This document shows positions 2 to 50,545 of a DNA stretch of 64,000 bases, piece after piece (position 1 is the first letter of the stretch; every line of letters begins with the position of its first letter). The notes below the pieces were generated by a model. That model was given only the letters and a program-made list of their open reading frames with translations, did not search any database and was not told where the DNA came from. Origin of the DNA: Candidatus Sumerlaeaceae bacterium (lineage in GTDB: Bacteria > Sumerlaeota > Sumerlaeia > Sumerlaeales > Sumerlaeaceae); the NCBI GenBank assembly GCA_049968255.1, contig JBMFRB010000002.1, positions 96,001 to 160,000 on the forward strand, read 5' to 3'. The position numbers and the translations under genes were made by a program.

Positions 2-2530
2 CAAACAACGCCAACGTTTTACCATGAGATACGTGATAGTCGCAACAGGGTGGTAAAACCAGCTCGGATTATCGAGCCAAGCGAGAAAAGCCTTGGCGTT
101 CCCGTCCTCAAGGTTGGTGACGCGTTTGGCAGGCAACCGCGCGGCAGTCTCAGCGGCAAAATCGTTTTCTGTTCCGGAGGCCACGGTTGGACATGCGACG
201 TGACCAGCACCAGCCTGTGGTATACGCAGCGCCCGCTGTCGTTTGGCATTGTCGAAGACTACGGCAACATTGATCAATTGAATCTGTTTGCCGACGTTGC
301 CTGGCGTGCCGGCGCCACAATTATTCCCTTTCGTCCCCTTGGACATCAACCAATCGAGCGAGTTCTTGATAACGCGGATAAGTCACATGTGAAGTTTGAT
401 GGGAACTGGTTTGATTCGCGCTCAGCGATTTACTACGGGACCGCTCATGACAAGGTGCCTTACCGCTTCGCAGTTGCCTCGACAACGGACACAGCACGCG
501 CCGTGTATCGGCCGTTTTTGCCAAAGGCCGACTACTATCCCGTGTACTGTTGGGTTCGCGACGGTGCTGACCGTGTACCGCAGACCTATCGCATTTTTCA
601 TGCGGGCGGTGTGACCGAAGTCCAGGTGGATCATCGTCGCGTTGGTAAGGGCTGGGTCTATTTGGGTGAGTACTATTTTAATCGCGGCTGGGATGGGTTT
701 GTCGAAATCAGTAATGTTGTCTCAGATCCGTCTCTCGCAGACGGTCGGCATGTTGTGATTGCCGATGCCATTCGCTTTGGGAACGGCATGGGAGACGTCG
801 ATCGTGGTGGAGGCGTCTCGGGTTATCCGCGCGAAGAGGAAGCTTCGCGATACTGGGTGGAACGTATGCTTCCGGTAGCAGCGCCGCCGATTTTCGATCC
901 ATTTGAAGCTACGGACCAGGATAGTAATGTGGGATGCCCTCCGCGCATGAGTGCTTACATGAATCGTGAGAGCGAAGGAAGCTTCTTCGACCGCATTTAT
1001 GTGGGATTCCACACAAATGCGGTGGGTGGACGTGGTGCAGTCGGACTTTTTGAAAAGGACGAGGATAAACGCACCGACCATCAGGTGGAATTTGCGCAGT
1101 TAGTGGCCCAGCAGCTCAACGAAGATATGTCCACAACAAGATCCTTTTCATGGGCGGCGCCGTGGAATGTGCGGAAAAAGACAACCGATTCACATATTAA
1201 TTTCGGCGAAATCCGCCGCGATGCGCTCAATAACGAAATGTGCGCCACGATTCTCGAAGCTGCCTTCCATGACGAGCCGCTCGATGCGAGCCTGATCCGT
1301 GATCCACGTTTCCGCACAGTTGTGGCCGAGGCCACGACGAAAGCAATCCTTCGCTTCTTCAAATCGCAGAATGCTCTTGGCGGTGACGACAAAATTCCCC
1401 CACACCCGCCGCGGTTTTTAGTCGCGCAAGCGCAAACAAGTTCCAGTGTGTTGTTGAAATGGGAAGCCAGTGAGGATGACGCTCAGCGTTCGACGATGAG
1501 TTACCGTCTTTATCACTCGCCTGATGGTTTTGCCTTTGGTGCCATTGCGGACGTCGGACAAACAACTGGTATTGTGGTGGCGGGGCTTGAACCTGGCCTT
1601 TCGCACTATTTCCGTGTGGCCGCTTACGACGGCAGTGGAGAAAGCGCTCCATCGCGAGTGCTCGGAGCCCGTTCAACCGGAACGACGACCGCGAGTCGCC
1701 ATCTCGTTGTTTCGGCTTTCACGACGTTTAGCGAAGACGTTGTGCTCTCCCAAAGCGTTCCCGCGGGATTAGGCTCGCCTCTGCGGGGAGGCGGCGAATT
1801 TGTTCGGGTTATTCCAAGAAAAATGAATGCTGGCAATTATGTAGCCCATTGGGGCACGGCTCTCGCTGCTGTGGGAGGAGAGTTTGATTCGTGCGATATC
1901 GCTGCTTTGGGCTCGCTCGCTTTGTCTGCAACATCTTACACGTCTGTAATGATTGCGCTCGGCAAACAAAGCCCCAAAGAGAGCTCTTTCAATCCCGCGT
2001 TGCTTGAGAAACTTGATGATTTCCGTAAGCAGGGAGGGGCAATCGTCGTGAGTGGCACAAATGTAGCGCGATGCCTCCGTCCGCTCAAAAGCGCATCTGA
2101 GAGTAAGCCGTCAAAAAAAGCATTGAGTTTTTACTCGTGGTGTCCGGTGGCGACCACGGAGTCGCTCATTGTTAGGTCAGTAGTTGGTCAAGGCGCGACG
2201 GAGTTTGCATCGGCGGAGTTCACCCTCGATGGTGGTGAGGGGGACGCTTATCCTGCCACTGGTTGTGATGGATTGCATCTGGCAGGGAGCAAAGCCCTTC
2301 TTGTGTACAGCACGGGCGCTCGTGAAACCGCATTGCTTTATCTTCCGCGCACGGCAAGGGTTGGTTCTGCAGTCTTTGCGGGATTCCCGCTCGAGTGCAT
2401 TCAGCCGGCCACAGCGCGCAATGATGCATTTGCGCGCCTAATAAAGCTTCTTGGTGCAGCTGAGTCAAAGGGCCGCCCGGGGAAAACGACTTCTCAGAAA
2501 AAGACCAAGACATCGGCGACCCGGCAATGA
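2..2530 (+). CDS. N-acetylmuramoyl-L-alanine amidase (Amidase_3-like) with golvesin/xanthan-lyase-type insert and fibronectin type III domain; 5' partial
   Basis: Frame is open from position 2 with no stop before 50, so the gene is truncated by the window edge. Amidase Zn/catalytic motifs GGHG, VED, FHTNA and LEAAFHD; insert containing GWVYLGEYYF and ADAIRFG; FN3 motifs LKWEA, YRLY and GLEPGLSHYFRVAAYDGSGES. Confidence 0.75.
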   Translation, partial: QTTPTFYHEIRDSRNRVVKPARIIEPSEKSLGVPVLKVGDAFGRQPRGSLSGKIVFCSGGHGWTCDVTSTSLWYTQRPLSFGIVEDYGNIDQLNLFADVAWRAGATIIPFRPLGHQPIERVLDNADKSHVKFDGNWFDSRSAIYYGTAHDKVPYRFAVASTTDTARAVYRPFLPKADYYPVYCWVRDGADRVPQTYRIFHAGGVTEVQVDHRRVGKGWVYLGEYYFNRGWDGFVEISNVVSDPSLADGRHVVIADAIRFGNGMGDVDRGGGVSGYPREEEASRYWVERMLPVAAPPIFDPFEATDQDSNVGCPPRMSAYMNRESEGSFFDRIYVGFHTNAVGGRGAVGLFEKDEDKRTDHQVEFAQLVAQQLNEDMSTTRSFSWAAPWNVRKKTTDSHINFGEIRRDALNNEMCATILEAAFHDEPLDASLIRDPRFRTVVAEATTKAILRFFKSQNALGGDDKIPPHPPRFLVAQAQTSSSVLLKWEASEDDAQRSTMSYRLYHSPDGFAFGAIADVGQTTGIVVAGLEPGLSHYFRVAAYDGSGESAPSRVLGARSTGTTTASRHLVVSAFTTFSEDVVLSQSVPAGLGSPLRGGGEFVRVIPRKMNAGNYVAHWGTALAAVGGEFDSCDIAALGSLALSATSYTSVMIALGKQSPKESSFNPALLEKLDDFRKQGGAIVVSGTNVARCLRPLKSASESKPSKKALSFYSWCPVATTESLIVRSVVGQGATEFASAEFTLDGGEGDAYPATGCDGLHLAGSKALLVYSTGARETALLYLPRTARVGSAVFAGFPLECIQPATARNDAFARLIKLLGAAESKGRPGKTTSQKKTKTSATRQ

Positions 2531-2974: not shown

Positions 2975-4558
2975 ATGGCACGAAAGTTCACCTGTGTCTT
3001 GGTTTTCGTCCTTTTCTCGTGGGCTACCCTCTCCTTCACCGCAGATTATCGGCTCAGCGACAAAGTGAAGTTCTGGAAGTTTGAAAATGGCTTTCAGGTC
3101 ATTTTTCTCCCGCGGGAAAACACGCCGTTTTTCTCCGCCGTCATTTACGTCAATGTGGGGGCCGTTGACGAATCAGTGGGGGAGTCCGGAATTGCCCATT
3201 TGCTTGAGCACATGGCTTTCAAGGGCACGCCATGGATCGGCACCCGCGACTGGAACGCCGAGCGCGAGAAACTCGTCGAGATCGAGCAATTAGCGCAAGA
3301 AATCCGGGCGCTAGAGAACAAGCACGGCAGCGACGCGGCAACGACATCGCTTTTCCGCCAATTTTCAGAGCTTCAAAAGCAATCCCAGAAATATGTTGTC
3401 CCCAACGAATACGACCGGCTAGTCACGCTTGCCGGCGGACAAGAGGTCAATGCGACCACGAGCAACGACTGCACAAACTATTTCATGACACTGCCGTCAA
3501 ACAAACTCGAGCTTTGGGCAATGCTTGAGAGCGAGCGCCTCCAATATCCGGCCTGGCGCGAGTTTTATAAGGAACGCGACGTGGTGGCCGAAGAGCGTCG
3601 CATGCGAATGGAAGACGACCCTGAGGGGCGACTTTACGAAGAGTTTATTGCCGCAGCTTTCAAGGCCCATCCGTATGGGACGCCCGTGATTGGTTGGATG
3701 TCGGATATCCTGAATCTCACAGTCTCCGATATGGTGTCTTTTTATCGCCGCTGGTATGTGCCGCAGAATATGGTGGCAGTTATCGTGGGCAATGTCAGCG
3801 AGGAAGAAGCGCGAGAGGTAACGAAAAAGTACTTTGGCACCTTACCACACCGGCCGTCGCCGTCGCGCTTAGCGACGCAAGAACCTCCTCAAACAGCGCT
3901 GCGGGAAGTAAAGCTGTCCGTTGATGCCCAGCCGCAGCTTGTCATGGGATGGCATAAGCCACCGCTGCCTTCCCGGGAGGCCACAGTTTTTGAAGTGCTG
4001 CAGTACGTTCTCACAGATAACGGGCGGTCGTCGCGTTTGTACAGCGAGCTTGTCAAGAAGCGTGGGCTGTGCGAATCCGTAGCTACCTTCACGGCGCCGG
4101 GGGAGAAGTATGGGAATCTTTTCTGCATTTGGGCCACGCCAAAAGCACCGCACACGCCGCAGGATGTGCAACGTGCAGTTTGGGAGGAACTTCACAAACT
4201 GCGAGAGAATGGGGTCACTACCGACGAGTTAGAAATGACGCTTGCGAAAGTTGATACCGCGCTGGTGCAAGAACTCGAGTCCAACCTTGGCTGTGCTCGC
4301 CGAGTGGGTTATTTTTACCTTATTACAGGTGATCCTACGTACCTCGACAAATACCGCGCAGAGATCCGCCGCGTGACAAGCGCTGATATTCAGCGCGTTG
4401 TCAACACATATCTCACGCGGGATCGCGCAACGATCGCCTCTGTCGAAAAGACCCTCCGCACGTTGCCCCCAGCTGACCGCGACGAACCCGAAAAACTTGA
4501 TCGGATTAAGAAGCAGCAACAGCGTGTGCATCCAGAACGAGGAGTCCACGGACGATGA
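2975..4558 (+). CDS. M16B (pitrilysin/insulinase family) zinc peptidase, catalytic subunit, signal peptide
   Basis: Inverted zinc motif GIAHLLEHMAFKG, NATTSND, ERDVVAEERR, HPYGTPVIG; hydrophobic N-terminus. Confidence 0.92.
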   Translation: MARKFTCVLVFVLFSWATLSFTADYRLSDKVKFWKFENGFQVIFLPRENTPFFSAVIYVNVGAVDESVGESGIAHLLEHMAFKGTPWIGTRDWNAEREKLVEIEQLAQEIRALENKHGSDAATTSLFRQFSELQKQSQKYVVPNEYDRLVTLAGGQEVNATTSNDCTNYFMTLPSNKLELWAMLESERLQYPAWREFYKERDVVAEERRMRMEDDPEGRLYEEFIAAAFKAHPYGTPVIGWMSDILNLTVSDMVSFYRRWYVPQNMVAVIVGNVSEEEAREVTKKYFGTLPHRPSPSRLATQEPPQTALREVKLSVDAQPQLVMGWHKPPLPSREATVFEVLQYVLTDNGRSSRLYSELVKKRGLCESVATFTAPGEKYGNLFCIWATPKAPHTPQDVQRAVWEELHKLRENGVTTDELEMTLAKVDTALVQELESNLGCARRVGYFYLITGDPTYLDKYRAEIRRVTSADIQRVVNTYLTRDRATIASVEKTLRTLPPADRDEPEKLDRIKKQQQRVHPERGVHGR

Positions 4559-6165
4559 AACAAATTTTCACTGACCTCTTCCCAAGCCTTACCAGAAAGC
4601 GCTCTTTTTTTTCCACGCTGCTCACCGTCTGCGCGGTCTTGATGACAGCGTTCGCAGTGAATGCGCGCGGAAGCGAGGGTACGTCCGCTCCTCTTGGGCT
4701 ACGCGAACGAATAGACAAGTTATTTCCTCCGCCGTTGGATGCCACAACGAGCGCTAGTGTGGAACGTGGTGGACTACGCCTCCCTGTGCGCCCAGAGCAG
4801 TTACCCGAGCAGCCATTCAAATTTGTGGTTCCTCGCGTCGAGCAAAGGCTGCTCTCCAACGGTACTAAGATTTTTTCATATTCGGCACCTCAGGCGCTCG
4901 GTTTTTATGCTGTGGCCATCATCGAGGCTGGGAGTGTTTGCGACCCACCTGAGAAACTTGGGCTTGCTGAAGTGACGGCGCTTGCGATGCGTTCTGGGGG
5001 AGCTGGCTCCTATTCGTCAGACGAACTAGATCGCCAACTCGATCGGCTCGGCGCGAGTCTAGCTGTGGACGTCCAGCGCGACTATGTCCGATTCACGCTT
5101 TTTTGTCTGCCCGAAAAGGCTCCCGAATCACTTCAGCTGCTAAGGTTCATCTTGATCGCCCCTCGTTTTGAGGTGGCGGCCGTGCAGCGCGAAAAGGCCC
5201 TTTTCAAAGAGCGTCTTGTGCGGGTCGAGGATGATCCAGCTGAGCTAAGTCGGCGGGAGTTCCGGAAGGTTGTTTACGGAACCACCCATCCTCTCGCCAG
5301 AACGCCGCGCATTTCAGACGTGGACAGGCTCTCCAGGGAAGATGTGCGAGCTTTCTATAAAAAATATTACGGTCCGTGGAGCACTCGGATCGGAATTGCT
5401 GCTCTCGACCCAAAATCATGCACAGGAGATAAGATTCAGCTTTTTGAACAGTGGCACGTGCCTGGACAAAAGCCAACAGTCAATCGCGGAACGGTGCCAG
5501 CTGACCTATCTCCCGCTTTTCAAGGACTATATGTTCTGCCTAAGGAGATTGAACAAGTTTACATTCGTATGGGGCACATTGGTCGCCCACGTGACCCCAA
5601 CGATCAACCTGTTGTGGATGTCCTCAACAATGTTTTTGGCACCGGTGGACTTACGAGCCGCCTTATGCAAAAGGTCAGGACGGAGTATGGTCTAGCTTAC
5701 GCTGTGGGGGGAGGAGTGTTTGAAGATAATCCTGCGGGCGTGTTTGCTGCGGTTGGCAGTACGAAAGCGCAGAGTGCCGCCGATGCTTTATCGATCATGC
5801 GCCAAGTAATTGAGGAACTCGCGAAGGTTCCGCCAACGAAGGAAGAGCTAGAAACTGCGAAGCGTGATGCCATGTTCGCATTTTCCAGTCGCTTTGCGTC
5901 ACCTCAAGAAACACTTGTGCAATACATGCTCGCCGATTTGTATGGTTATCCTCCTGACTATCTTTCCAACTACATGGCAAGAGTCGAACAGGTGACGGCA
6001 CACGATGTTCACGCTGCGGCGCAGCGTTATGTAAGGTCTGAGAAATTAGCGGTTCTCGTGCTTGGACGCGAAACAGTTACGGAATCCTTGTCAAAAAAAT
6101 TTGGAAAAGTGACCCCTTGGCAACAACCCAAGAGCAGCGAGTCCGCCAAGCAGCGTAAACGCTGA
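4555..6165 (+). CDS. M16B peptidase non-catalytic partner subunit, signal peptide
   Basis: ATGA overlap with the upstream gene; GLAEVTA replaces HxxEH; SRLMQKVRTEYGLAY (R/Y pair) is typical of the beta subunit. Confidence 0.88.
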   Translation: MKQIFTDLFPSLTRKRSFFSTLLTVCAVLMTAFAVNARGSEGTSAPLGLRERIDKLFPPPLDATTSASVERGGLRLPVRPEQLPEQPFKFVVPRVEQRLLSNGTKIFSYSAPQALGFYAVAIIEAGSVCDPPEKLGLAEVTALAMRSGGAGSYSSDELDRQLDRLGASLAVDVQRDYVRFTLFCLPEKAPESLQLLRFILIAPRFEVAAVQREKALFKERLVRVEDDPAELSRREFRKVVYGTTHPLARTPRISDVDRLSREDVRAFYKKYYGPWSTRIGIAALDPKSCTGDKIQLFEQWHVPGQKPTVNRGTVPADLSPAFQGLYVLPKEIEQVYIRMGHIGRPRDPNDQPVVDVLNNVFGTGGLTSRLMQKVRTEYGLAYAVGGGVFEDNPAGVFAAVGSTKAQSAADALSIMRQVIEELAKVPPTKEELETAKRDAMFAFSSRFASPQETLVQYMLADLYGYPPDYLSNYMARVEQVTAHDVHAAAQRYVRSEKLAVLVLGRETVTESLSKKFGKVTPWQQPKSSESAKQRKR

Positions 6166-6183: not shown

Positions 6184-7350
6184 ATGGTGCCCGGTTCCTC
6201 ATTGGCCAAGCGCGTAATCGCTTTAGATGTGCGCATGATTGAGCACACAGGAATCGGTGCATACCTGAGAGGGCTGTTACCTCACCTTGTGGCGCTCCGT
6301 GAGCATTACCAAATCCAGTTTGTCTTCCTAGGTCCTCGCCACAAACTGGAGCGATATCATTTCCTTAGGGCAGGAGGGGACATTGTTGACTACGCGGCAC
6401 CAATTTACAGCCTCCTTGAACAAACCCTTTTTCCGCGGCTCGCAGGCGTCGATGCTTACCATTTCCCTCACTACAATGTGCCTCTGACATTTGGTCGTCC
6501 TTTCTTTGTCACGATACATGACCTTATTCCGCTTGTGAGACCTGAGTATAAGGCACAAGTATTTTACCGAGCTATCGTGCGCCTCTTAGTGTTTCACGCG
6601 GCGCAACATGCGCAGAAAGTTTTTGTCCCCAACCCATGGGTGAGAGAAGAGCTTATTCAGGAATTTCGCATTGCGGAGAATAAGATTACGGTTTTGCCCT
6701 ATGCACCGCCTGACTACTTGACGACGCCTGCGGGACACTTGGTAGAAGCCACCCTTCATCGCTTTCAGCTTACACAGCCTTATCTTCTGTGCGTCAGCCT
6801 CCACAAACCACATAAAAACTTAGATTTTTTACTGCGCTCCTTCTTTTGCCTAACCAAAGACCGCGGTTTAGGGAGAGAGCTCAAATTAGTTATTGGTGGC
6901 CTTCGTGCAAAGGATGTGCTCGCTCTCGAGGACAGAATCCGGGAACTGCAAGCACTAGAGCAAAGCAATCGTGTGATCTTGATATCAGAATATTTATCGC
7001 CATCCGAGCTTGCCTGCCTCTATGCGGGGGCGCTGGCAGTTGTGACCACATCGCTTCTGGAAGGCTTCGGTCTGCCGATTGTGGAAGCGCAGAAGCTGGG
7101 AGTGCCAGTCATTGCGCCAGATCTACCATGGGCTCGTCACACCGCGGGCGATGGAGCGCTCTTTTTCGCGCCCTATCAGCTCGAATCGCTTGTCGAGGCC
7201 GTTCTCGCGGTTGCCAATGATGCGAATTTGCGCGAACAAATCATCACTCGTGGGCACGCAAACGTTTCACGCTTTAGCTGGGCCCAAACAGCCAGATTCA
7301 TCATGCAGGCTTACGACGAGTCTATTGCGGCGATGCACTCTCATGCGTAA
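6184..7350 (+). CDS. glycosyltransferase family 4 (GT-B, MtfB-like)
   Basis: TGIGAY, VTIHDLIP, KPHKNL, EGFGLPIVEA, FSWAQTA. Confidence 0.92.
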   Translation: MVPGSSLAKRVIALDVRMIEHTGIGAYLRGLLPHLVALREHYQIQFVFLGPRHKLERYHFLRAGGDIVDYAAPIYSLLEQTLFPRLAGVDAYHFPHYNVPLTFGRPFFVTIHDLIPLVRPEYKAQVFYRAIVRLLVFHAAQHAQKVFVPNPWVREELIQEFRIAENKITVLPYAPPDYLTTPAGHLVEATLHRFQLTQPYLLCVSLHKPHKNLDFLLRSFFCLTKDRGLGRELKLVIGGLRAKDVLALEDRIRELQALEQSNRVILISEYLSPSELACLYAGALAVVTTSLLEGFGLPIVEAQKLGVPVIAPDLPWARHTAGDGALFFAPYQLESLVEAVLAVANDANLREQIITRGHANVSRFSWAQTARFIMQAYDESIAAMHSHA

Positions 7351-8638
7351 TGCGATGCTGTGACATTTCCTTTATCCTGGGCCCGAGTGCGTTTGCAATT
7401 GTTTCTCCCAGCAGACGAGAGAACTGCGGTGAGTAGTGGACCATGTCCAAGTAAACAGGATCCGGTGCCGTGGTTTGAAGATCTGCAGCCCACAGAAAAT
7501 TCTGCCCCAGCTTGCCTTCCTCGTACAATTGTCTCATTTTCGGATAGCCAAAGGCTGAGAACATCTTTTTGCAGTCCTTTGGAAATAGATGCCGGCGAAG
7601 ATCAAAATGATAAGATGGAACGGGCTGCCAGACAAAAAGTGTTGAGAAGCGGAATTGCTCGCCGGCGCCTTCTATCATTCTCTTGTTGGCTAAGTAGGTC
7701 GAAATAACTTTGCCGATCACTTCGGGACGATTGAAATAGGCCACGTCCGCTTGCGTGAGAGCGTTTGGATCATCGCCGTCGGCCACGGCAAATCCGTGTT
7801 CTTTTTTTCCCATCAATTGTAATAAGCGAATGAGAGGGAGCTGTTTCGCTGCGGCAGCCCATGGCGACGGGGGAGGCTTTTCGGCCACAATAATGTCCAA
7901 CATTTCTGAAAGTTGAGATGAGTACTTCGGCACGTTATCAATATAAAAAAACTCATTGAGTCCGTCTATAAACACAGCCACATCCGGCACATATCCCTCG
8001 CTGAGAAGGAATTGTAAGTAAGCACGTTCCTGCGAAGAATAGAAAGAGTTTGTTCCGAAGTTATAAACGACAATACGTTGAGTTGGAAACGTACGCCGAA
8101 GTGAGTCTTGAATCGCAGAAGGAACGGTTTGCCAGTCCGCTACACCGTAGCCAAAGGTCGTTGACCCACCAAAGATAAAAATATTAATGTTTTTGCGAGA
8201 AGGTGGCCAAGGTTCTTGGTCTTTGCTGTAACGGAATCCCCATTCGTCGATATTCACATATTGGCCCCTGTAAGGACGCTCGCGGAACAACGTGAAGGGA
8301 TGAAAAGCAACCGGACGACCCCATGTTTCCGTCAGCAATTTGTCCACTTCATTTCGTGGCATGTTTTCGTAGACTAGCCGAAATGCTTTTTCCGCTGCTT
8401 CTGGGCCATAGCGATCAACGATCGGATTCCATGAAACATAGGGACGCGTTGGCCGTGTGATCAGCACCACCCACGCTAAAATATTGAGCACGATGGCAGC
8501 GATGAGAAGATTGAAACAGAAAAGCGAGACACGTGCGTACTTCCTTGCGAAGCTCTGAACCGAGCTGCGCAAATGTTCGTCAGGAGAAAAGGCCGTCCCC
8601 TTGGGCGGTAGGGTATGCGTGTTTTGCTCTTTTTCCAT
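7322..8638 (-). CDS. membrane-anchored SGNH/GDSL hydrolase-like protein
   Basis: N-terminal TM helix; FGGSTTFG (block I), DGLNE (block III), DMVH (DxxH). Start chosen at ATG 8638. Confidence 0.8.
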   Translation of the reverse strand: MEKEQNTHTLPPKGTAFSPDEHLRSSVQSFARKYARVSLFCFNLLIAAIVLNILAWVVLITRPTRPYVSWNPIVDRYGPEAAEKAFRLVYENMPRNEVDKLLTETWGRPVAFHPFTLFRERPYRGQYVNIDEWGFRYSKDQEPWPPSRKNINIFIFGGSTTFGYGVADWQTVPSAIQDSLRRTFPTQRIVVYNFGTNSFYSSQERAYLQFLLSEGYVPDVAVFIDGLNEFFYIDNVPKYSSQLSEMLDIIVAEKPPPSPWAAAAKQLPLIRLLQLMGKKEHGFAVADGDDPNALTQADVAYFNRPEVIGKVISTYLANKRMIEGAGEQFRFSTLFVWQPVPSYHFDLRRHLFPKDCKKMFSAFGYPKMRQLYEEGKLGQNFLWAADLQTTAPDPVYLDMVHYSPQFSRLLGETIANALGPRIKEMSQHRITHESASPQ

Positions 8639-8715
8639 TGCCGTAAAGCGGTTCTCTTTCGCTAGCGTACTAAGGTAGTGCAAACAACGGAAGACTATTG
8701 AGCAAGAAAAGACCA

Positions 8716-9138
8716 ATGATCAAACGTGTACCATTGTTTGCTCGAATGATTGCTCGAACAATGGCCATGCTGGGCGCTGCCGTTTTTGTGTGCACGGCGC
8801 AGGACGGTCTTTATGCGCAGTACACACCTGACATTGAGTTGTGGTTGGGAGAACGGATAGGTCGCTTTGGCGACTTTGAGTTTTCGATTCTCGGCGGGCG
8901 TCCCGATTATCCCACGCCTACGGGGGCGTTCGTGGTTGAGTGGAAGTCCCGTTCCTGGTGGTCGAAGCAGTGGAATGCACCCATGCCTTATTCCGTCTTC
9001 TTTCGTAACGGGGCCGCAATCCACGAAGGCAGTCTCTCAGTCCCTAGTCACGGATGCATCCATGTCAACCAGAAGGCTGCTCGTTATATCTTTGAAAACT
9101 CGCGCGAAGGGGTCACGCGTGTTTTTGTCTACCCATAG
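8716..9138 (+). CDS. L,D-transpeptidase (YkuD domain), minimal, exported
   Basis: PTPTGAF, MPYSVFF, AIHEG and SHGCIHV catalytic motif. Start uncertain (8698-8761). Confidence 0.88.
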   Translation: MIKRVPLFARMIARTMAMLGAAVFVCTAQDGLYAQYTPDIELWLGERIGRFGDFEFSILGGRPDYPTPTGAFVVEWKSRSWWSKQWNAPMPYSVFFRNGAAIHEGSLSVPSHGCIHVNQKAARYIFENSREGVTRVFVYP

Positions 9139-18335: not shown

Positions 18336-19919
18336 TTACTTCGGCAGCGGAATAAGGATACGCAGCTCGTGCTCGCGAGCGAAGTCGTCTATCGCCTTTT
18401 GCAGGGCTTCCCACGCTTTGCGGTTTCGGGCTTGCTCCAGGCACATGTCGCGCACTTCGTCAAACGACAGTTGGGGCTGTTCGCGCCGCGCGTCGAGCCG
18501 ATAAAATGCCACGCCGCTTTCCGTTGGCAGGTTGTTCGTCAGCGAGCCCGTCGTGATTTTCACCAGTTCGTCATCGGCTTTTGGTTCGTCGCTCGACATG
18601 GCCCAATCGGCCTGTTGCGTGACTTCTCCACCTAATTCAGTGGCCTCCGCCCTAAGCTGCTCGAGCGAAGCTTCGGGATGAGCGAGCACAAAATCTCGCA
18701 GCTTATTGAGGGCGTCGAGCGCAGTGTGCCGCGTCGGGTAGCGCACCGTCCCATATGGCACAAGGAAGCGGGTGTACTTTAAGTAGCCACCTTTGCGCAT
18801 TGCTTTGGAATATGTTGTGTAATAGGCCCGCGCGTCATCTTCCGTCGGACGAAAGCGTTCAAGATTCGTGTCGAGAAAGCAGGTGCGAGCCAGCACACGC
18901 TCGCGGAAAAAACGCTCCTTCTTCTCGCAATGCGTTGGAGTCGTCATCTCCTCCAAAATCGCCCCGGCGAGCAGCTCTTGCGTGACTGTTGTTGGGCCGA
19001 AATGCTTTGCCACCAGCTTCTGCGCCTCCTCGTTCAGCTGTTCGGCCCGCATGAGCGCGATGATGTTTTTCTGCAGATTCGGATCGCGCTCGATCGTTTC
19101 GGTCGTCAGGCGCTGCTCAGGGTAAACGTGCGCCACCCACACAATATAATAGCCGTTGTGCAAAAGCGTCGGCGAAGAAATCACGTCCTCCGGCAGCGAA
19201 AAAGCGAAATCGACAAACTTGCGGTTATAAGGCACATGGCGTGAGATCGTCCCGATGCGTCCGCCTTTCGTGCTGCTTGGCGCCTGACTGTAAAAGCGGG
19301 CCGCGTCGTCGAATCGCAGGCGATGCTCAGCGAGAAGGCGGTAGATCTCCTCCATCTCTTTCTTCACGGCCTCGCGCTCGGCTTGGGTTTTTGTCCCTGT
19401 CGTCGAGCGGAAGATATAACGCACATCGCGCATTTCCTCACGTTCGAAAGCCTTACGGTGGCGAAATCCTGCCTCGACAATCTCCGCCAGCGTCGGTGTG
19501 GTGAAGTGTGTTGCCACCTGCGTTTGCCACGCCGCGATGACGCACGGCCAGAGCAGAGGTCGCGAAATCGCACTCACCGTCGTCTCAAGGTTCGGACACA
19601 GATCGCGCGCGCGCGCCGCCATCGCTTCTTCCCATGAGCGCTCGCGTGCAATTTGCTCCACGAATGTCGCTGCATCCTTGCGCTCCGCCTCAATCGAGCC
19701 ATGCAGCGCCGTTTCCACCGGATCCGCGTATGGATAGCGAGCGGCTTGACTGTAGAGGGCAATATCCTCAGCCGTCAAGTTGCCGCCCCTCCACTGCGCC
19801 ACGTGCGTCGCCAAGAGGTCGGACGCCGCGGCTCCCGTTGCCGCTGCAACCGTCACCACACCTGCCAGCCATGTACACAGAAAACTCCAAAACAACACGT
19901 GTTTTGTGCGATCATTCAT
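18336..19919 (-). CDS. exported parvulin-type (PpiC/SurA/PrsA-like) peptidyl-prolyl isomerase/foldase
   Basis: Signal-like N-terminus; VRYIF, FDDAARFYSQAPSSTKGGRIG, FVDFAFSL...ISSP...GYYIV; second degenerate rotamase-like region ending SFDEVR. Start 19919 or 19952. Confidence 0.8.
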   Translation of the reverse strand: MNDRTKHVLFWSFLCTWLAGVVTVAAATGAAASDLLATHVAQWRGGNLTAEDIALYSQAARYPYADPVETALHGSIEAERKDAATFVEQIARERSWEEAMAARARDLCPNLETTVSAISRPLLWPCVIAAWQTQVATHFTTPTLAEIVEAGFRHRKAFEREEMRDVRYIFRSTTGTKTQAEREAVKKEMEEIYRLLAEHRLRFDDAARFYSQAPSSTKGGRIGTISRHVPYNRKFVDFAFSLPEDVISSPTLLHNGYYIVWVAHVYPEQRLTTETIERDPNLQKNIIALMRAEQLNEEAQKLVAKHFGPTTVTQELLAGAILEEMTTPTHCEKKERFFRERVLARTCFLDTNLERFRPTEDDARAYYTTYSKAMRKGGYLKYTRFLVPYGTVRYPTRHTALDALNKLRDFVLAHPEASLEQLRAEATELGGEVTQQADWAMSSDEPKADDELVKITTGSLTNNLPTESGVAFYRLDARREQPQLSFDEVRDMCLEQARNRKAWEALQKAIDDFAREHELRILIPLPK

Positions 19920-30462: not shown

Positions 30463-30522
30463 GGGATGCTAGTTTTGGAAGAACGCGACAACGCTTCAAG
30501 GAAAACATAAGTCTTGCCTACC

Positions 30523-31347
30523 ATGGCGTCAGGGGTTCATCTGTGGCCTGTGCTCGTTCCACCCGCGATTGTCATTTCTGTGCCTACGCTGCGTGTAGCG
30601 AAGAAGCTCGCGTCGAAGCTAAGCTTTTCGCGGCGTTTGCACACAGGTTTATTTTCGCTGTGGGAGGGCTATCGCGACGGGGTTCTCGTTGCCGTCGTTT
30701 ATTGTCAGGGCGACGAGGACGTCCACTACGCCTGCGTGCGGCACCTCGCCCATCTCTACCGCGTGGCGTGTGTCACGCTCGTCGAACCAGTTGTTGCTGT
30801 CTCAGAGGATCTTGCTCTTGGGGACGTGATCATCGTACGGGAGGCACGCCATTACTTTTGCCCGACGGCGCTGCCAGGCAATCTTGATGCTCCTAATGAA
30901 CTTCTTTTCCGCGGTGAGCAGGTGCAGGAGTGGCTAGGGGCACCACCCGTTCTTGCCTCTCCAAAATTTCTCGATGCATGGTCTAGGATCAAAGCTCCGG
31001 ATTTGCGGAAAGGAATCAGCACGGTTGCAAAGTTCTGCAATATTGGTTCAAGCTCTCGCCCCATACGCGGTTGGCGCGCCCCCGAATTTGTTCGTAGCCA
31101 TTTTTCTGTCGAGGTTGTGGACGAAGGTGCTTATGGTTTTCTTTGCGCTTGCAAAGATGTCGGCTTAACGGGGGGCATCGTTGGCGTTGTCGAGGCGGCT
31201 GTCACTCATCAGCTTGGAATGACAACGGATTCTGGGACGATGTCACGTAAACTGCAGGAGGCGGCGCTCGCAGCGCTCGACGTGGCTTATGGGGAATTTG
31301 CCAGCATATCTTTTCGACGAATTCTGCCCGAAACCTGCTCGCCTTAG
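30523..31347 (+). CDS. nucleoside phosphorylase / MTA-SAH nucleosidase-fold protein, degenerate
   Basis: DLALGDVII and VVDEGAYG (cf. AVEMEGAA); canonical GxGK and RxxSD motifs are missing. Confidence 0.55.
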   Translation: MASGVHLWPVLVPPAIVISVPTLRVAKKLASKLSFSRRLHTGLFSLWEGYRDGVLVAVVYCQGDEDVHYACVRHLAHLYRVACVTLVEPVVAVSEDLALGDVIIVREARHYFCPTALPGNLDAPNELLFRGEQVQEWLGAPPVLASPKFLDAWSRIKAPDLRKGISTVAKFCNIGSSSRPIRGWRAPEFVRSHFSVEVVDEGAYGFLCACKDVGLTGGIVGVVEAAVTHQLGMTTDSGTMSRKLQEAALAALDVAYGEFASISFRRILPETCSP

Positions 31348-31393: not shown

Positions 31394-33217
31394 CTAACGC
31401 GATGTGCGGATAATTTCGATGCGCTTGCTCTTTTTGGTGGCCTGCGGCCTAGAACTCGCTGTCTCCTTCGCGGGAATGTTGGCCGGGGAGATCCCTAATG
31501 TTTCCAAGAGAGTTCCTTTCGCTCGCTCCAACTGAATAATGGACTTATTGTACTCGATGATCGCTCGCAAAAGATTGCTGCGTGCTGCGGCGAGGTCGGT
31601 CTGGAAGCGGAGCACTTCAAAACTTGTTGCCAGGCCAACGCTTTGGCGTTTCATGCCTGTGTCAACTTTTTCGCGATTGAATTCCACGGTAGCCATGCCG
31701 ACCTCGATCTGCTGGCGGTTTGTTTCCACAGCGCGGATTGAGCTGCGCACATCCTGGATAATGTCCTGCTGGGCCTTGTCGATCATGAGGATTGCTTGCT
31801 CGATCGCCTTTTCAGCCTCTTTGAAGCGGTAGCGGGCAGCACGGTTTTGCAGAGGATAGCTGAACTGCAAGCCGACTCGCCAGTTACCGTAGTCGTTGCT
31901 GCGCGTCTCATCCCAAGCGCCCCCTGGGGTGTTGTCGACGCCAAGAGCCAGGTAGCGAGCGAACAGGTCAAGCTGCGGCAACGTTTGGTTTCTGGCAAGC
32001 TTGTGCTTGATATCAGCCTGTTCAAGGGCGAGCCGCACTTGGGCAAATTCTGGACGTTTGAGCAACGCCTGTTTGATAAACGCTGCCTCCTTGCCTCTGA
32101 CGTCATATTCGGGCACTTCTGGGAGGTCCATCGGCACCAACGTGACCTCGCGCATGTCGGAGATTTCAGCAAGCTGATTCTTGAGTTGGTCACTAACTTC
32201 CTCGACTGTTTGCAGCGCGTTGACGAGAAGTTGTTGGCGCGCTGCCACATCAGCTTTTGCCTGCAGGACGTCGAGCTCCGGAAGAACACCCGCATTGTAC
32301 TTTGCCGTGTTGACGCGAAGAAGCTCCTGTGCCTGGGCGAGAGAGATCCGGAGAACATCCACGTTTGCTGTTGCGAAAATCAGCTCGTAATAAAGCGAGA
32401 TGGACTTTGTGAGCTCGCCAAAGAGCTGTTGCCGGTAGCTCTCGTTCGCCAGCTTGCTTGCGACTTCTGCAAGCCGAATTCCCGCGTTCGTGACGAAGGT
32501 TCCGGCGTTTTTCAGTAGCGGCTGAGAGACTTGGACTCCGGCGCCCGTGGAATAATATGGGCTAAAGTAGTACGGGGAATTGTTGTCCACGGAGGAGCGC
32601 TGGAAGAGCAATTCGATGAGCCCACCCGTCGGAAGAAGCTGTCCGACACTGACGTTTGTGCTTGTGTCTTTTTGCTTCTGGTCGGCAGCCATGCCCGTCG
32701 GTGGAGTTCCCTTATAGGGTGGCGGGTAATTCGTCCTATCCACAGAGATGCTGGCGCCAAGGCGCAGATCGTAAATGCCGCGCTGTGCCTCGATTTCGTA
32801 AGCGGCGCTTTGCATGCCCAGATCCTGAATTTTGATATTCAGGTTTTTTGCGACTGTTCTTGCAATGACCCCTTCGAGGCCGATGACGACTTTACGGCTT
32901 CGCTTTGAAGAGAGATATTCTTCGAACTCCGCGATATCCGGTAAGCGAAGGCCCGTGCCGCTTGTCTCTGAGGCGGTTAGCGTTCGACTTGTGCCACATT
33001 CGAGCGACGCCGAAGTGGTGAGAGTTCCGAGTTGGGCGCCACACCCGAGCAACTCATGCAGCGTTGGCCGGCGCTGAGTGCTCTGTCTGGCATCTGGCGG
33101 AAAATCCACTGAGTTGCCTGAGATCCTGGTGGGATTGTCGTCTTTGGCGTAGGCAAGCCCCCCCACGCATAAGGCTGCCACGAGAGTCATTGTCCAACTA
33201 TGCCGCATCCTCAACAT
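31394..33217 (-). CDS. TolC-family outer membrane efflux protein
   Basis: Signal peptide; QLLPTGG, SQPLLKNAG, LDVLQA, RPEF, LPQLDL, YPLQNRAAR, GTLLE. Confidence 0.9.
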   Translation of the reverse strand: MLRMRHSWTMTLVAALCVGGLAYAKDDNPTRISGNSVDFPPDARQSTQRRPTLHELLGCGAQLGTLTTSASLECGTSRTLTASETSGTGLRLPDIAEFEEYLSSKRSRKVVIGLEGVIARTVAKNLNIKIQDLGMQSAAYEIEAQRGIYDLRLGASISVDRTNYPPPYKGTPPTGMAADQKQKDTSTNVSVGQLLPTGGLIELLFQRSSVDNNSPYYFSPYYSTGAGVQVSQPLLKNAGTFVTNAGIRLAEVASKLANESYRQQLFGELTKSISLYYELIFATANVDVLRISLAQAQELLRVNTAKYNAGVLPELDVLQAKADVAARQQLLVNALQTVEEVSDQLKNQLAEISDMREVTLVPMDLPEVPEYDVRGKEAAFIKQALLKRPEFAQVRLALEQADIKHKLARNQTLPQLDLFARYLALGVDNTPGGAWDETRSNDYGNWRVGLQFSYPLQNRAARYRFKEAEKAIEQAILMIDKAQQDIIQDVRSSIRAVETNRQQIEVGMATVEFNREKVDTGMKRQSVGLATSFEVLRFQTDLAAARSNLLRAIIEYNKSIIQLERAKGTLLETLGISPANIPAKETASSRPQATKKSKRIEIIRTSR

Positions 33218-39215: not shown

Positions 39216-40205
39216 TTACTGGAAGAGCTGCCAATCGCTAGCGGCTGTTGAGGGAACGACGTCGGTAATCTTGAAATTGTCAAACAACATGAAAGACTCA
39301 CCCGGTGGATTAGACCAACTCGAGAACGGGTCCCCAGCGATAAGACCCACTTTTTTCTCGGTCTTGGAACTCGACACCGTGACAATTGGATAGCCATTGA
39401 TGTAGAAGGTTACATTTGAGCCCCGTACAGAGGCACGGATTGTGTTCCACAGCCACCCTGCCACATTGCCCAATGTCCGTCCAGCAGGAGGCGCCAGGAC
39501 AAAGCTAAACTGGGTGTTGAAATCATGAGAGACAAATGGCGACGGATCGCCGGCCTGGAACGTCCCGGTCTGACCGTTGAGAGTCGCGGTCGGGCCACCG
39601 GTTCTTGCTGCTGGATCATAGCAGAAAATATCCGTGGCGCTTTCGCCGTTCTCACCATTGAAGCCGAACGCGAGCCCGTCCTGAGGATAGCTGCTGGCGG
39701 TAGTAGAGAGATCAGCATATGCCGGGTTGGTGCCCCACACGCCAAATGCGGGGTTGCATCCGCTCAGAGCGTTGTTGCGCAGTCCTCGAATGCCATTGCC
39801 ATTGCTCTGAATGACAATACCGATATGCTCAGTGGTTCCGCCGGCAGGGGATGAAATTGGATACGCGATGAATGCGTCCACTTCCACGTCATAGTTGGAC
39901 GTCAGCGGCACTGCCGTGCACCACACAGTGACGCCTTCTTGGTAGTTAGTCGTGTCGTTGGTGTTGTTAGATTCAATTTTCAAGCCAATTGTGTCTCCGT
40001 GTGGAGATGCAGGAATTGTTGTGTAGCCGGTACCGGCGGGAGCAGTGTCCGTGCCCCAGTTGTACCCGAACGTCACAGTATTGTCTGGCGTTTGGGTTGT
40101 GACGAAATCACTCCCGGCGGAATTCATTCCGCTGGAGATGACGACTGTGTCGCTCCATCCCAAAAGTGGAAGGCCGGCGAGAAGTGCTAGAAATGTTGTT
40201 CTCAT
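39216..40205 (-). CDS. Sec-exported beta-sandwich (ConA-like) protein ending ...STAASDWQLFQ
   Basis: GGAGG RBS; signal peptide MRTTFLALLAGLPLLGWS; T/G/N/S-rich; WNTI...VTFYING...FDNFKIT pattern. Confidence 0.8.
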   Translation of the reverse strand: MRTTFLALLAGLPLLGWSDTVVISSGMNSAGSDFVTTQTPDNTVTFGYNWGTDTAPAGTGYTTIPASPHGDTIGLKIESNNTNDTTNYQEGVTVWCTAVPLTSNYDVEVDAFIAYPISSPAGGTTEHIGIVIQSNGNGIRGLRNNALSGCNPAFGVWGTNPAYADLSTTASSYPQDGLAFGFNGENGESATDIFCYDPAARTGGPTATLNGQTGTFQAGDPSPFVSHDFNTQFSFVLAPPAGRTLGNVAGWLWNTIRASVRGSNVTFYINGYPIVTVSSSKTEKKVGLIAGDPFSSWSNPPGESFMLFDNFKITDVVPSTAASDWQLFQ

Positions 40206-40298
40206 GGCAAACCTCCATAGGTGTCGATTATGACAAGCGGTCCATGCTGGCCGCTTTGTCATTTTTGTGAGAGAGTCTTTCGTCCTCTTGCAATTGTT

Positions 40299-40314
40299 TT
40301 TCAAGGAAAAAATG
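40299..40314 (-). promoter_or_regulatory. putative -35 element (TTGAAA) with upstream T-tract
   Basis: TCAAGGAAAAAATG at 40301-40314, 96 nt from the ATG, as at the 21153 gene. Confidence 0.5.
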
Positions 40315-40436
40315 ATGGGTACATAAAGCATTTCGACAAGGGGGACGCAAAAAAACAAGTTGCAATCATCTGGCGCGCGCCAACCATCGCAAAATCACAG
40401 TTTGCAACCCTAGATGAAGAAGAGAGTGTTGACGAA

Positions 40437-41948
40437 ATGCCCGTAACGATGGACGCGATAGTCTCGCTTTGTAAGCGGCGGGGCATTATTTTTCAGAGCA
40501 GCGAAATCTACGGCGGACTTGCCAGCACGTGGGACTACGGCCCGATCGGTGTCGAGCTGAAACGAAATGTTAAAGAAGCATGGTGGCGCGCCCTCATTTA
40601 TGAGCGTGATGACATTGACGGGCTTGATGCTGCGATTCTTATGCACCCACAGGTTTGGGTTGCGAGTGGTCATGTGAGCTCTTTCACTGATCCGCTTGTC
40701 GATTGCAAACAGTGCAAAAAACGTTGGCGTCAGGACCACCTTCCCAAGACGTTTTCGGTCTGTCTCGTTCCAGCAGACACGCCCGACGCGAAGGCGGTCA
40801 TCGTCAAAGTTGTGGCGGAAGACGCCGACGATGCGCTGAAAAAGGCTAAAGGATCTAAAGATTGGGGGAGCAAACCAAAGGGTTATTGGCAAGTTCTTGG
40901 CGAGCCCCAGCTTACTGAGCCCGTTTGCCCAGATTGTGGGGGAGAGCTGACCGAGCCCCGATTGTTTAACCTCATGTTCAAAACGTTCGTAGGACCAGTA
41001 GAAGAGGCTGCGGCTGTTGTGTATCTCCGTCCCGAAACAGCACAAGGAATTTTTGTTAATTTTGAGAACGTGCTAACGACGATGCGCCGCAAACTCCCCT
41101 TTGGGATCGCTCAAATAGGCAAAAGTTTTCGCAATGAAATCACGCCCGGGAACTTCATTTTCCGAACACGCGAATTCGAGCAGATGGAGCTCGAGTATTT
41201 CTGCAAGCCCGGCGACAAGTGCAAACCTGGCGAGCCGACCGACATGGACTGGTGGGAGCATTGGAAGGCGGAGCGACTCAATTGGTACAAGCGTTTTGGC
41301 ATTCGTAGCGAAAACCTACGCTTGCGCGAACATGCTGCCGACGAACTGGCTCATTACGCGAAAGGCTGCGTGGATGTCGAATATCGATTCCCTATCGGCT
41401 GGAGCGAGTTGGAAGGAATCGCGAACCGAACGGATTATGATCTGACGCAGCACATGAGACATTCTGGCCGTGATCTGCGCTACTTTGATCAGGAACGCGG
41501 AGAGCATTACGTGCCGTACGTGATCGAGCCCAGCGCTGGCGCTGATCGCGCCACGCTTGCTTTTTTGTGCGACGCCTATCGCGAGGAGATTGTCGAGGGC
41601 AGAGAACGGCGCGTCCTCAGCCTTCACTACGCACTCGCACCTATCAAGTGTGCTGTCTTCCCTCTCCTCAAAAACAAACCCGAACTCGTGGAAATTGCAC
41701 AAAAACTTGCTCGGGATCTTAAGCGGTCCTTTTTCACAGTGTACGACGACACGGCAGCCATCGGAAAGTTGTACCGCCGACAGGACGAAATCGGAACTCC
41801 CTTTTGCGTGACAGTGGATGTGGATACGCTCTCTGATGGTCAGGTGACCCTGCGTGATCGCGACACCATGCAGCAAGAGCGCTTGCCGCTAGAAAAGGTT
41901 CGTCAGGTCGTTGCAGAGCGACTGCAAGCAGCTTGGGAGAGAGCATGA
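40437..41948 (+). CDS. glyQS: glycine--tRNA ligase, alpha2 (homodimeric) type
   Basis: [60 protein letters not shown]. Confidence 0.97.
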
Positions 41949-50152: not shown

Positions 50153-50545
50153 GTGTCTTGCCAAGAAATCCGCTTCTCCAAAACGCACGAGTGGGCGCGC
50201 GCCGACGGTGAATTGGCCACGATTGGCATCACGGACTACGCGGTGGAACAGCTCAACAAGGAAATAGTTTACGTTGAGCTTCCCCCCCTTGGAAAAACCG
50301 TCAAGCAAGGCGAAACGTTCGGAGTTGTGGAAGCCGTAAAAACCGCCGCAGATCTCTACGCGCCACTGTCAGGAACAGTCGAGGAGGTCAATTCGACGAT
50401 TTCAGAAGATCCGTCTCCTCTATGTCAGGATCCGCAAGGCGAAGGATGGTTGATCAAAATCCGCCCAGCCGATCCTGCAGAGTGGGGACGTTTGATGAAT
50501 GCCGATGACTACAAGAAGTTCGTGGAGGAAGAAGGGCACCATTGA
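50153..50545 (+). CDS. gcvH: glycine cleavage system H protein
   Basis: HEW, GITDYA, EAVKT (lipoyl lysine), GWL. Confidence 0.96.
   Translation: MSCQEIRFSKTHEWARADGELATIGITDYAVEQLNKEIVYVELPPLGKTVKQGETFGVVEAVKTAADLYAPLSGTVEEVNSTISEDPSPLCQDPQGEGWLIKIRPADPAEWGRLMNADDYKKFVEEEGHH

Follow-up and report, generated by a model that had tools for sequence, protein, structure and literature searches.

The O-glycosylation sequon of Bacteroidota, D-[ST]-hydrophobic, is described in the available portion of a 2025 review as the only one known in bacteria, its transferase being undiscovered; given there in full as D-(S/T)-(A/I/L/V/M/T), it is carried by non-cytoplasmic proteins and has been proven by glycoproteomics (PMC12871550). 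PglL-type enzymes have no defined sequon, as far as the accessible text of another review goes (PMC12645811), and in an anammox bacterium an S-layer protein is O-glycosylated at a G-T/S motif (bioRxiv 10.1101/2020.12.03.409086, part available). Human TMEM260, a GT-C enzyme, reads its sequon on an extended peptide via TPR 'fingers', the sequon being IPT-domain-specific (P-x5-P-x3-G-P-x2-G/A-G-G-x2-T/S; bioRxiv 10.64898/2026.03.17.711096, part available); bacterial TMEM260 homologs are mentioned only in passing in the text at hand. Here we analyze a 64,000-nucleotide stretch of a Candidatus Sumerlaeaceae genome (the window; G000:C2:96001-160000 of the 3.12-Mb, 31-contig assembly G000, 95.75% complete), in which the initial annotation had noticed that every TT pair of an exported parvulin (18336-19919) reads TTx[ST], and had proposed T-T-x-[ST] as the sequon of a general periplasmic O-glycosylation system.

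The proposed enrichment in exported proteins stands and is oriented, but TTx[ST] proved incomplete, and the motif is better written as D-x-x-T-[T/S]-x-[T/S/P]. This motif is like the Bacteroidota sequon in being short, in placing an Asp ahead of a hydroxyl residue, with a preference for hydrophobic residues after it, and in being confined to non-cytoplasmic soluble and membrane proteins, of which it occupies a large share (compared with the available portion of PMC12871550); it differs in its phylum (Sumerlaeota) and in its spacing and content, D-x-x-T-[TS]-x-[TSP], and it is known here from statistics alone. With the second T-[TS] residue as acceptor, the arrangement would also resemble that of Campylobacter PglB, D/E-x-N-x-S/T, with an upstream acid, an acceptor and a hydroxyl two residues further, although the acceptor would be Ser/Thr instead of Asn and G000 has no STT3/PglB match. 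The anammox system shares a short O-glycan motif in an environmental non-Bacteroidota bacterium, but its motif is different and is reported, in the part of the source available, for an S-layer protein and not proteome-wide (bioRxiv 10.1101/2020.12.03.409086). In the literature searches made, neither a D-x-x-T-[TS] or TTx[ST] sequon nor any Sumerlaeota glycoprotein turned up.

Genes were predicted with a simple home-made caller that dropped open reading frames (ORFs) shorter than 90 amino acids (aa) or with a coding score below 10, which gave 2160 genes covering 86% of G000. Crude home-made signal-peptide and transmembrane heuristics, not SignalP or TMHMM, divided the products into 503 signal-peptide (SP), 301 signal-peptide plus transmembrane (SP+TM), 370 transmembrane (TM) and 986 cytoplasmic (CYT) proteins, the non-cytoplasmic set numbering 1174. 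Expected counts were obtained from whole-protein shuffles and from local shuffles within 15-aa or 8-aa blocks, and the mirror-image motif (e.g., [TS]x[TS]T for T[TS]x[TS]) served as the orientation control; relatives and control replicons were run with the same scripts. As a check of the method, the haem-attachment motif C..CH outranked every other oriented pattern in the relative G013 by a wide margin. Within G013:C26:1-280000, the non-cytoplasmic ORFs of these 280 kb hold 89 C..CH and 2 of the mirror pattern, a density suggestive of a multihaem cytochrome cluster.

Genome-wide, 519 of 3073 TT pairs read TTx[ST]. In SP proteins the proportion was 0.230 (239/1039) against a composition expectation of 0.125, and in CYT proteins 0.111 (110/991) against 0.099, so that the wording that the motif "saturates" exported proteins was too strong. 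T[TS]x[TS] occurred 459 times in SP proteins, compared with 283.7 ± 15.6 expected from 15-aa shuffles (z = 11.2), whereas the mirror [TS]x[TS]T was at expectation (283 vs. 281.2, z = 0.1), as was T[TS]x[TS] in CYT proteins (207 vs. 206, z = 0.1). The excess extended to TM (z = 5.3) and SP+TM (z = 4.1) proteins, and the motif is present in 430 of the 1174 non-cytoplasmic proteins. The surplus of Ser/Thr is specific to the +3 position (1.84-fold; mirror position -2, 1.20-fold). When every ab.c pattern of the SP proteins was scanned, TT.T (145 vs. 49, 2.96-fold) and TS.T (130 vs. 49, 2.65-fold) ranked second and third, other Ser/Thr triples lying between 0.83- and 2.10-fold over composition; in CYT proteins TT.T and TS.T each reached 1.25-fold. 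The composition control called for in the initial annotation thus left the signal intact: it survived whole-protein, 15-aa and 8-aa shuffles, with no excess of the mirror or in CYT proteins, and an effect of composition or low complexity was rejected on the strength of the local shuffles and the mirror motif. The enrichment of T[TS]x[TS] is real, oriented and compartment-specific. Neither known sequon explains it, as neither is enriched in G000: the Bacteroidota motif D[ST][AILVMT], with enrichment as a proxy for the published criterion, gave 473 vs. 525.7 in SP (z = -2.5) and 664 vs. 736.8 in CYT proteins, and N[^P][ST] gave 833 vs. 808.9 in SP proteins (z = 0.9). Along the mature chain of SP proteins, T[TS]x[TS] is commoner in the first tenth (69 sites vs. 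32-54 in each other decile), and the mirror motif is flat.

TTx[ST] is the C-terminal half of the longer motif D-x-x-T-[TS]-x-[TSP]. Context profiles omitted sites close to protein ends, that of T[TS]x[TS] using 438 of the 459 sites. Around T[TS] in non-cytoplasmic proteins there was an excess of Asp at -3 (1.91-fold, z = 12.3), depletion of Arg at -1, and an excess of Thr (1.99-fold), Pro (1.46-fold) and Ser (1.42-fold) at +3; none of these preferences was seen in CYT proteins. Leu and Val are favoured directly after the motif. Extended patterns stood out further in the non-cytoplasmic set: D..T[TS] (345 vs. 166, z = 16), T[TS].[TS][LIVM] (274 vs. 112, z = 13) and, above all, the full seven-residue motif, with 134 occurrences compared with 32.7 ± 5.1 expected (z = 19.9; 15-aa shuffles, with the same result for the 8-aa window), its mirror being at 29 vs. 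32.1. The halves tend to occur together: of 337 D-bearing sites, 131 have T/S/P at +3, vs. about 0.27 of all T[TS] sites. The 134 sites are spread over 112 proteins of varied context; paralogous repeats or a single domain family were rejected as a source, 0 of 7140 site pairs having at least 33% identity over 30 flanking residues (the comparison covered 120 of the 134, the other 14 lying too close to a protein end). CYT proteins hold 23 full motifs vs. 14.4 expected, among them four Hsp70 DLGTTNS signatures, one in a GroEL-like protein and one beside an ABC-ATPase Walker-type motif. The four Hsp70-type ORFs with DLGTTNS lie at C1:405538-407463, C1:275893-277647, C2:246415-248235 and C3:171878-175360 of G000, and one of them is 1160 aa long.

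The parvulin on which the proposal was built is the most extreme case in the genome. It is encoded on the minus strand (18336-19919), in a 538-aa ORF open to 19952, and probably starts at Met12 (position 19919), to judge from its sequence, giving 527 aa; the database homolog P0002 begins at the same Met. From Met12 the protein has a positive n-region followed by a hydrophobic stretch, and our heuristic, which is not a trained predictor, places it in the SP class. Pfam assigns residues 163-287 to Rotamase (E = 4.2e-12, 47.3 bits, cut-off 21.7), with Rotamase_2 (43.5 bits) and Rotamase_3 (41.4 bits) also above cut-off over the same residues, which identifies a parvulin-type peptidyl-prolyl isomerase (PPIase). 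As the initial annotation had counted, all eight TT pairs read TTx[ST] (TTVS, TTPT, TTGT, TTET, TTVT, TTPT, TTYS and TTGS); at the genome-wide rate of 0.169 this has a binomial P of 6.6e-7 and ranks first of the 2160 gene calls for TTx[ST] extremeness. Three of the next four in rank have signal-peptide-like or hydrophobic N-termini (5/5, 5/5 and 7/11), and the remaining one (4/4) has an N-terminus that is not clearly signal-like.

An initial search of the genome contigs for relatives of the parvulin found none; the sites were compared in an alignment of 10 family members, including the window's own protein, at 50-77% identity. Site 1 (TTVS, residue 124 in the numbering of the 538-aa ORF, 19572-19583) has T[TS]x[ST] in 4/10 homologs and ESTVT in one more, and site 2 (TTPT, residue 151, 19491-19502) has TT in 8/10 and T, S or P at +3 in 10/10. 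Two sites flank the PPIase domain: site 3 at its N-terminal edge (TTGT, residue 184, 19392-19403) is TT[GA]T in 10/10, with T173, T174 and T176 nearly invariant among close homologs, and site 4 at its C-terminal edge (TTET, residue 283, 19095-19106) keeps TT in 10/10 and S/T at +3 in 7/10 close homologs. Site 5 (TTVT, residue 321, 18981-18992) is T[TS]xT in 8/10 with T/S exchange at position 1, site 6 (TTPT, residue 337, 18933-18944) is [TS]TP[TSA] in 10/10, site 7 (TTYS, residue 379, 18807-18818) is T[TS]x[ST] in 10/10, and site 8 (TTGS, residue 467, 18543-18554) is TTGS in 8/10, all sites being on the minus strand. The eight sites thus largely persist over the ten homologs, and T/S swaps preserve the motif.

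The same patterns were raised in the non-cytoplasmic proteins of several relatives. In G002, of the same genus (800 kb), T[TS]x[TS] was at 191 vs. 120 (z = 6.9), D..T[TS] at 107 vs. 38.5 and the full motif at 41 vs. 7.9 (z = 12.4); in G006, of another genus of the family (400 kb), T[TS]x[TS] was at 95 vs. 69.6 (z = 3.1), TT.T had z = 5.7 and D..T[TS] was at 43 vs. 22.4 (z = 4.7); and in G021, of another family (400 kb), T[TS]x[TS] was at 98 vs. 61.4 (z = 4.4), TS.T had z = 8.7 and the full motif was at 15 vs. 4.7, D..T[TS] alone not being raised. The cytoplasmic classes of these three genomes were flat, and mirrors were at expectation in the relatives with signal. In the non-cytoplasmic proteins of E. 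coli K-12 (800 kb) and S. meliloti pSymB (400 kb) no pattern was raised, T[TS]x[TS] standing at 81 vs. 88 (z = -0.7) and 23 vs. 29.5 (z = -1.4), respectively, and a general trait of exported proteins was rejected on this ground. G026 and G036 offered too little sequence for a judgement, and in the motif-poor families no alternative Ser/Thr motif stood out in 180k residues. A DNA-level, poorly calibrated proxy, in which a back-translated pattern was compared with the protein mirror over 61 genomes of the phylum, was highest in family f1 (pooled 1.55; 1.25-1.77 in 10/10 genomes), two genomes of other classes giving 1.09 and 0.94; its miscalibration is seen in G046, which has 1.35 without a protein-level excess of T[TS]x[TS] or D..T[TS], vs. 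1.25 in G006 with the signal.

Extra conservation of the motif is modest. Between G000 and G002 (571 reciprocal-best pairs), D..T[TS] was kept in 66/95 non-cytoplasmic cases compared with 23/44 for the mirror (P = 0.059) and 15/32 in cytoplasmic proteins (P = 0.033). Between the non-cytoplasmic orthologs of G000 and G006 (58.5% identity), T[TS]x[TSP] was kept in 45/111 vs. 15/72 for the mirror (Fisher P = 0.006), and cytoplasmic orthologs showed no such difference (20/35 vs. 13/27).

The genome also holds candidate enzymes, although the search for transferases suggested in the initial annotation was borne out for only some of the types named: PMT-like and PglL/Wzy_C-like candidates are present, but STT3 (PF02516) had no match at E ≤ 0.001 in G000. 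PMT_2 (PF13231) had 26 matches (18 above cut-off), PMT (PF02366) had 5, Wzy_C (PF04932) had 11 (10 above cut-off), and the TMEM260-like family (PF11028) had one, an ORF of 613 aa scoring 82.8 bits. C-terminal TPR repeats occur in two of the seven PMT_2 proteins scanned; Pfam found no TPR in the 613-aa ORF. The TMEM260-like gene lies between genes for PMT_2 (571 aa) and a NAD-dependent sugar epimerase/dehydratase, tightly packed on the minus strand at G000:C6:44003-48452, and PMT_2 and TMEM260-like matches are also about 1-1.5 kb apart in G002:C12, G006:C1 and G046:C7. Among 14 named control genomes, PF11028 was found only in Bacteroides thetaiotaomicron. Across six genomes of 3-6 Mb (G000, G002, G006, G021, G046 and G024) there are 16-31 PMT_2 and 7-12 Wzy_C matches per genome, and membrane glycosyltransferase-like genes are greatly expanded for this genome size.

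These families place G000 beside two described types of enzyme. The eukaryotic protein O-mannosyltransferases TMEM260, TMTC1-4 and PMT/POMT are GT-C enzymes with several membrane passes whose sugar donor is a lipid-phosphate sugar, used at the non-cytoplasmic face, and G000 has PMT_2 and TMEM260-like genes; unlike the long, IPT-specific sequon of human TMEM260, however, the G000 motif is short, and we found no link between gene and motif. PglL, PilO and PglS (Wzy_C) transfer preassembled glycans at the periplasmic face to Ser/Thr of many exported proteins; unlike these, G000 shows a defined motif, and its Wzy_C matches could just as well be ligases or polymerases of O-antigen. A tie between motif strength and enzyme dosage was considered and dropped, candidate-enzyme counts showing no correlation with it. 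The candidate enzymes are an opportunity, not a link to the motif.

Elsewhere in the window, the hand counts in the initial annotation were largely reproduced: TTGT in the cyclophilin, TTAS in the Bmp protein, TTES in the GH31 protein, TTGT twice in the phosphoesterase, TTQT and TTAS in ORF 39216, and TSAS, TSRT and TSGT near the N-terminus (32954-33016, minus strand) of the OEP/TolC-like protein 31394-33217, as well as the cytoplasmic exceptions (two in the 1053-aa ORF, one each in ORFs 50542-51903 and 30514-31347). ORF 2-2530 (plus strand), exported by our heuristic and beginning upstream of the window, shows 11 T[TS]x[TS] sites and one full motif, DMSTTRS (1124-1144), within its window part, and ranks fourth genome-wide for TTx[ST] (7/11 TT pairs); the six TTx[ST] sites listed for it are there, but TTPT at residue 2 had been missed, making seven in total, and its naming as an amidase is not supported by Pfam, which gives only Golvesin_C and fn3 and no amidase domain in the window part. 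The 380-aa ORF 39216-40358 (minus strand; signal-peptide-like N-terminal hydrophobic segment, no Pfam family) carries two full motifs, DFVTTQT (40089-40109) and DLSTTAS (39693-39713); it overlaps the start of the opposite-strand ORF 40221-41948 and was dropped by the greedy gene caller. Further full motifs are DATTSAS (4738-4758, plus strand) in the exported ORF 4555-6165, DLQTTAP (7463-7483, minus strand) in the exported ORF 7322-8716, DVTTSES (54227-54247, plus strand) in the exported Metallophos and beta-propeller protein 53459-55651, which also has TTGT twice, and DPQTSAP (59569-59589, minus strand) in the GH31 protein 58264-60828. Over the window as a whole, TTx[ST] accounts for 21 of the 50 TT pairs of non-cytoplasmic ORFs, 15 of the 21 coming from two proteins; without the parvulin and ORF 2-2530 the proportion is 6/31, vs. 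3/20 in cytoplasmic ORFs.

We give about an even chance to the motif being the sequon of a general extracytoplasmic protein O-glycosylation system. Selection would have enriched D-x-x-T-[T/S]-x-[T/S/P] in proteins leaving the cytoplasm of a Sumerlaeota lineage, and a membrane glycosyltransferase dependent on lipid-phosphate sugar would modify the Thr or Ser of the T-[TS] pair. The enzyme may be a GT-C protein of PMT_2, TPR-PMT_2 or TMEM260-like type, or a Wzy_C/PglL-like O-oligosaccharyltransferase, and would recognize the motif just after Sec translocation, on chains that are still extended. The modification itself, the nature of the glycan, the acceptor residue and the acting enzyme are all inferred from sequence.

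Several observations count against this interpretation. The support is statistical, and the gene calls and localisation classes behind it are home-made. Most matches are expected from chance (approximately 284 of 459 in SP proteins), and no single site can be called as real; seven of the eight parvulin sites lack Asp or Glu at -3. The signal is not class-wide: T[TS]x[TS] was near expectation in G046 (family f14, 360 kb; 63 vs. 58.5, with D..T[TS] at 15 vs. 17.9 and the full motif at 8 vs. 3.5, z = 2.8), in G024 (family f7, 300 kb; 31 vs. 25.6, with TS.T at 12 vs. 5.9, z = 2.8) and in G013 (family f2, 280 kb; 66 vs. 57), where only D-containing forms were raised (full motif, 13 vs. 4.6). Since the excess is found in G000, G002, G006 and G021 and not in all families, it is a trait of family f1, of which three genera were sampled, and of one or more further families. 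At the genus level, the conservation of motif Thr/Ser exceeds that of other Thr/Ser by just 3-11 points, and T[TS]x[TS] was kept between G000 and G002 in 104/180 cases vs. 57/109 for the mirror (P = 0.39). The TMEM260-like gene is present in 61/61 Sumerlaeota genomes, so that its presence does not track the motif, and PMT_2 matches number 28, 29 and 16 in motif-rich vs. 31 and 23 in motif-poor genomes. A periplasmic enzyme predicts sites on the outside only, a pattern that the crude topology tests did not show, although with so weak a predictor this is not contrary evidence: among 258 polytopic proteins oriented by the positive-inside rule (N-terminal tails, loops below 8 aa and proteins with K+R differences below 3 omitted), the motif is in excess in loops called cytoplasmic (52 vs. 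30.8) as well as periplasmic (32 vs. 20.1), and in an underpowered set of 13 two-TM sensor-like proteins both parts gave 1.52-fold. Split by the number of TM segments, the excess is 1.3- to 1.5-fold throughout.

The statistics show only a selected, oriented motif in non-cytoplasmic proteins, not its chemistry, and could also reflect recognition by another extracytoplasmic process, such as a non-glycan modification of Thr/Ser (acylation, phosphorylation, addition of phospho-sugar or phosphoglycerol) or the binding of a periplasmic factor peculiar to the lineage that acts as a chaperone or in sorting or quality control. The independence of motif strength from glycosyltransferase counts speaks for such a process. 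We hold this to be unlikely: O-glycosylation is the only general sequon-like Ser/Thr modification in the available portions of the reviews (PMC12871550, PMC12645811), a binding motif occurring several times per protein, in soluble and membrane proteins, would be without obvious precedent, and the hydroxyl pair, preceded by an acid and followed by a hydrophobic residue, resembles the known sequons of bacterial glycosylation, D/E-x-N-x-S/T and D-[ST]-hydrophobic (PMC12871550, same portion). An unmodified structural element, a loop, turn or helix start serving folding or stability outside the cell, would fit the coil-like context (Pro at -1, Gly/Ala/Ser at +2, Leu at +4, Glu at +5), the excess in loops called cytoplasmic as well as periplasmic, and parvulin sites such as TTPTLAEIVEAGF, TTGTKTQAEREAVKK and TTVTQELLAGAILEE, which by eye appear to precede stretches that look helical. 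Such a preference would be expected in CYT proteins too, yet these are at 207 vs. 206, and in the exported proteins of other bacteria, yet E. coli and S. meliloti are at 81 vs. 88 and 23 vs. 29.5; with the sites lying in proteins of unrelated sequence as well, we find it rather improbable.

There is finally the matter of artefact, whether from composition, Ser/Thr-rich linkers, the home-made calling and classes or a post-hoc choice of motif. Exported proteins do contain more Thr and Ser (0.063 of each, against 0.049 and 0.050), Ser/Thr triples in that class run at 1.1-2.1 times composition, the motif was first spotted by eye in this same window, and the classifier is crude. However, shuffles within 8 or 15 residues preserve local composition and still give z of 13-20 with the mirror at expectation, misclassification would only dilute the difference between classes, the fixed patterns were retested on unused sequence (G002, G006 and G021) and two controls, and a true periplasmic attachment motif (C..CH in G013) is picked up by the same approach, which together make an artefact very improbable.

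Returning to O-glycosylation, a more specific version can be offered only tentatively: a family-level lineage of Sumerlaeota may have a second system of general, sequon-directed O-glycosylation that evolved independently, in which a GT-C enzyme of TMEM260-like or TPR-PMT_2 type would read the seven-residue motif on chains that Sec has translocated and that are still unfolded. Because the TMEM260-like family is universal in the phylum and, among the controls, found only in Bacteroides, it might be the missing O-glycosyltransferase of Bacteroidota. An oriented, compartment-specific motif excess would make such systems findable from genomes alone. If the O-glycosylation reading is true, the search for the transferase would be narrowed, a new short tag for glycoengineering would be at hand, the glycoproteins of organisms beyond the reach of culture could be predicted from sequence, and motif-directed O-glycosylation would have arisen more than once.

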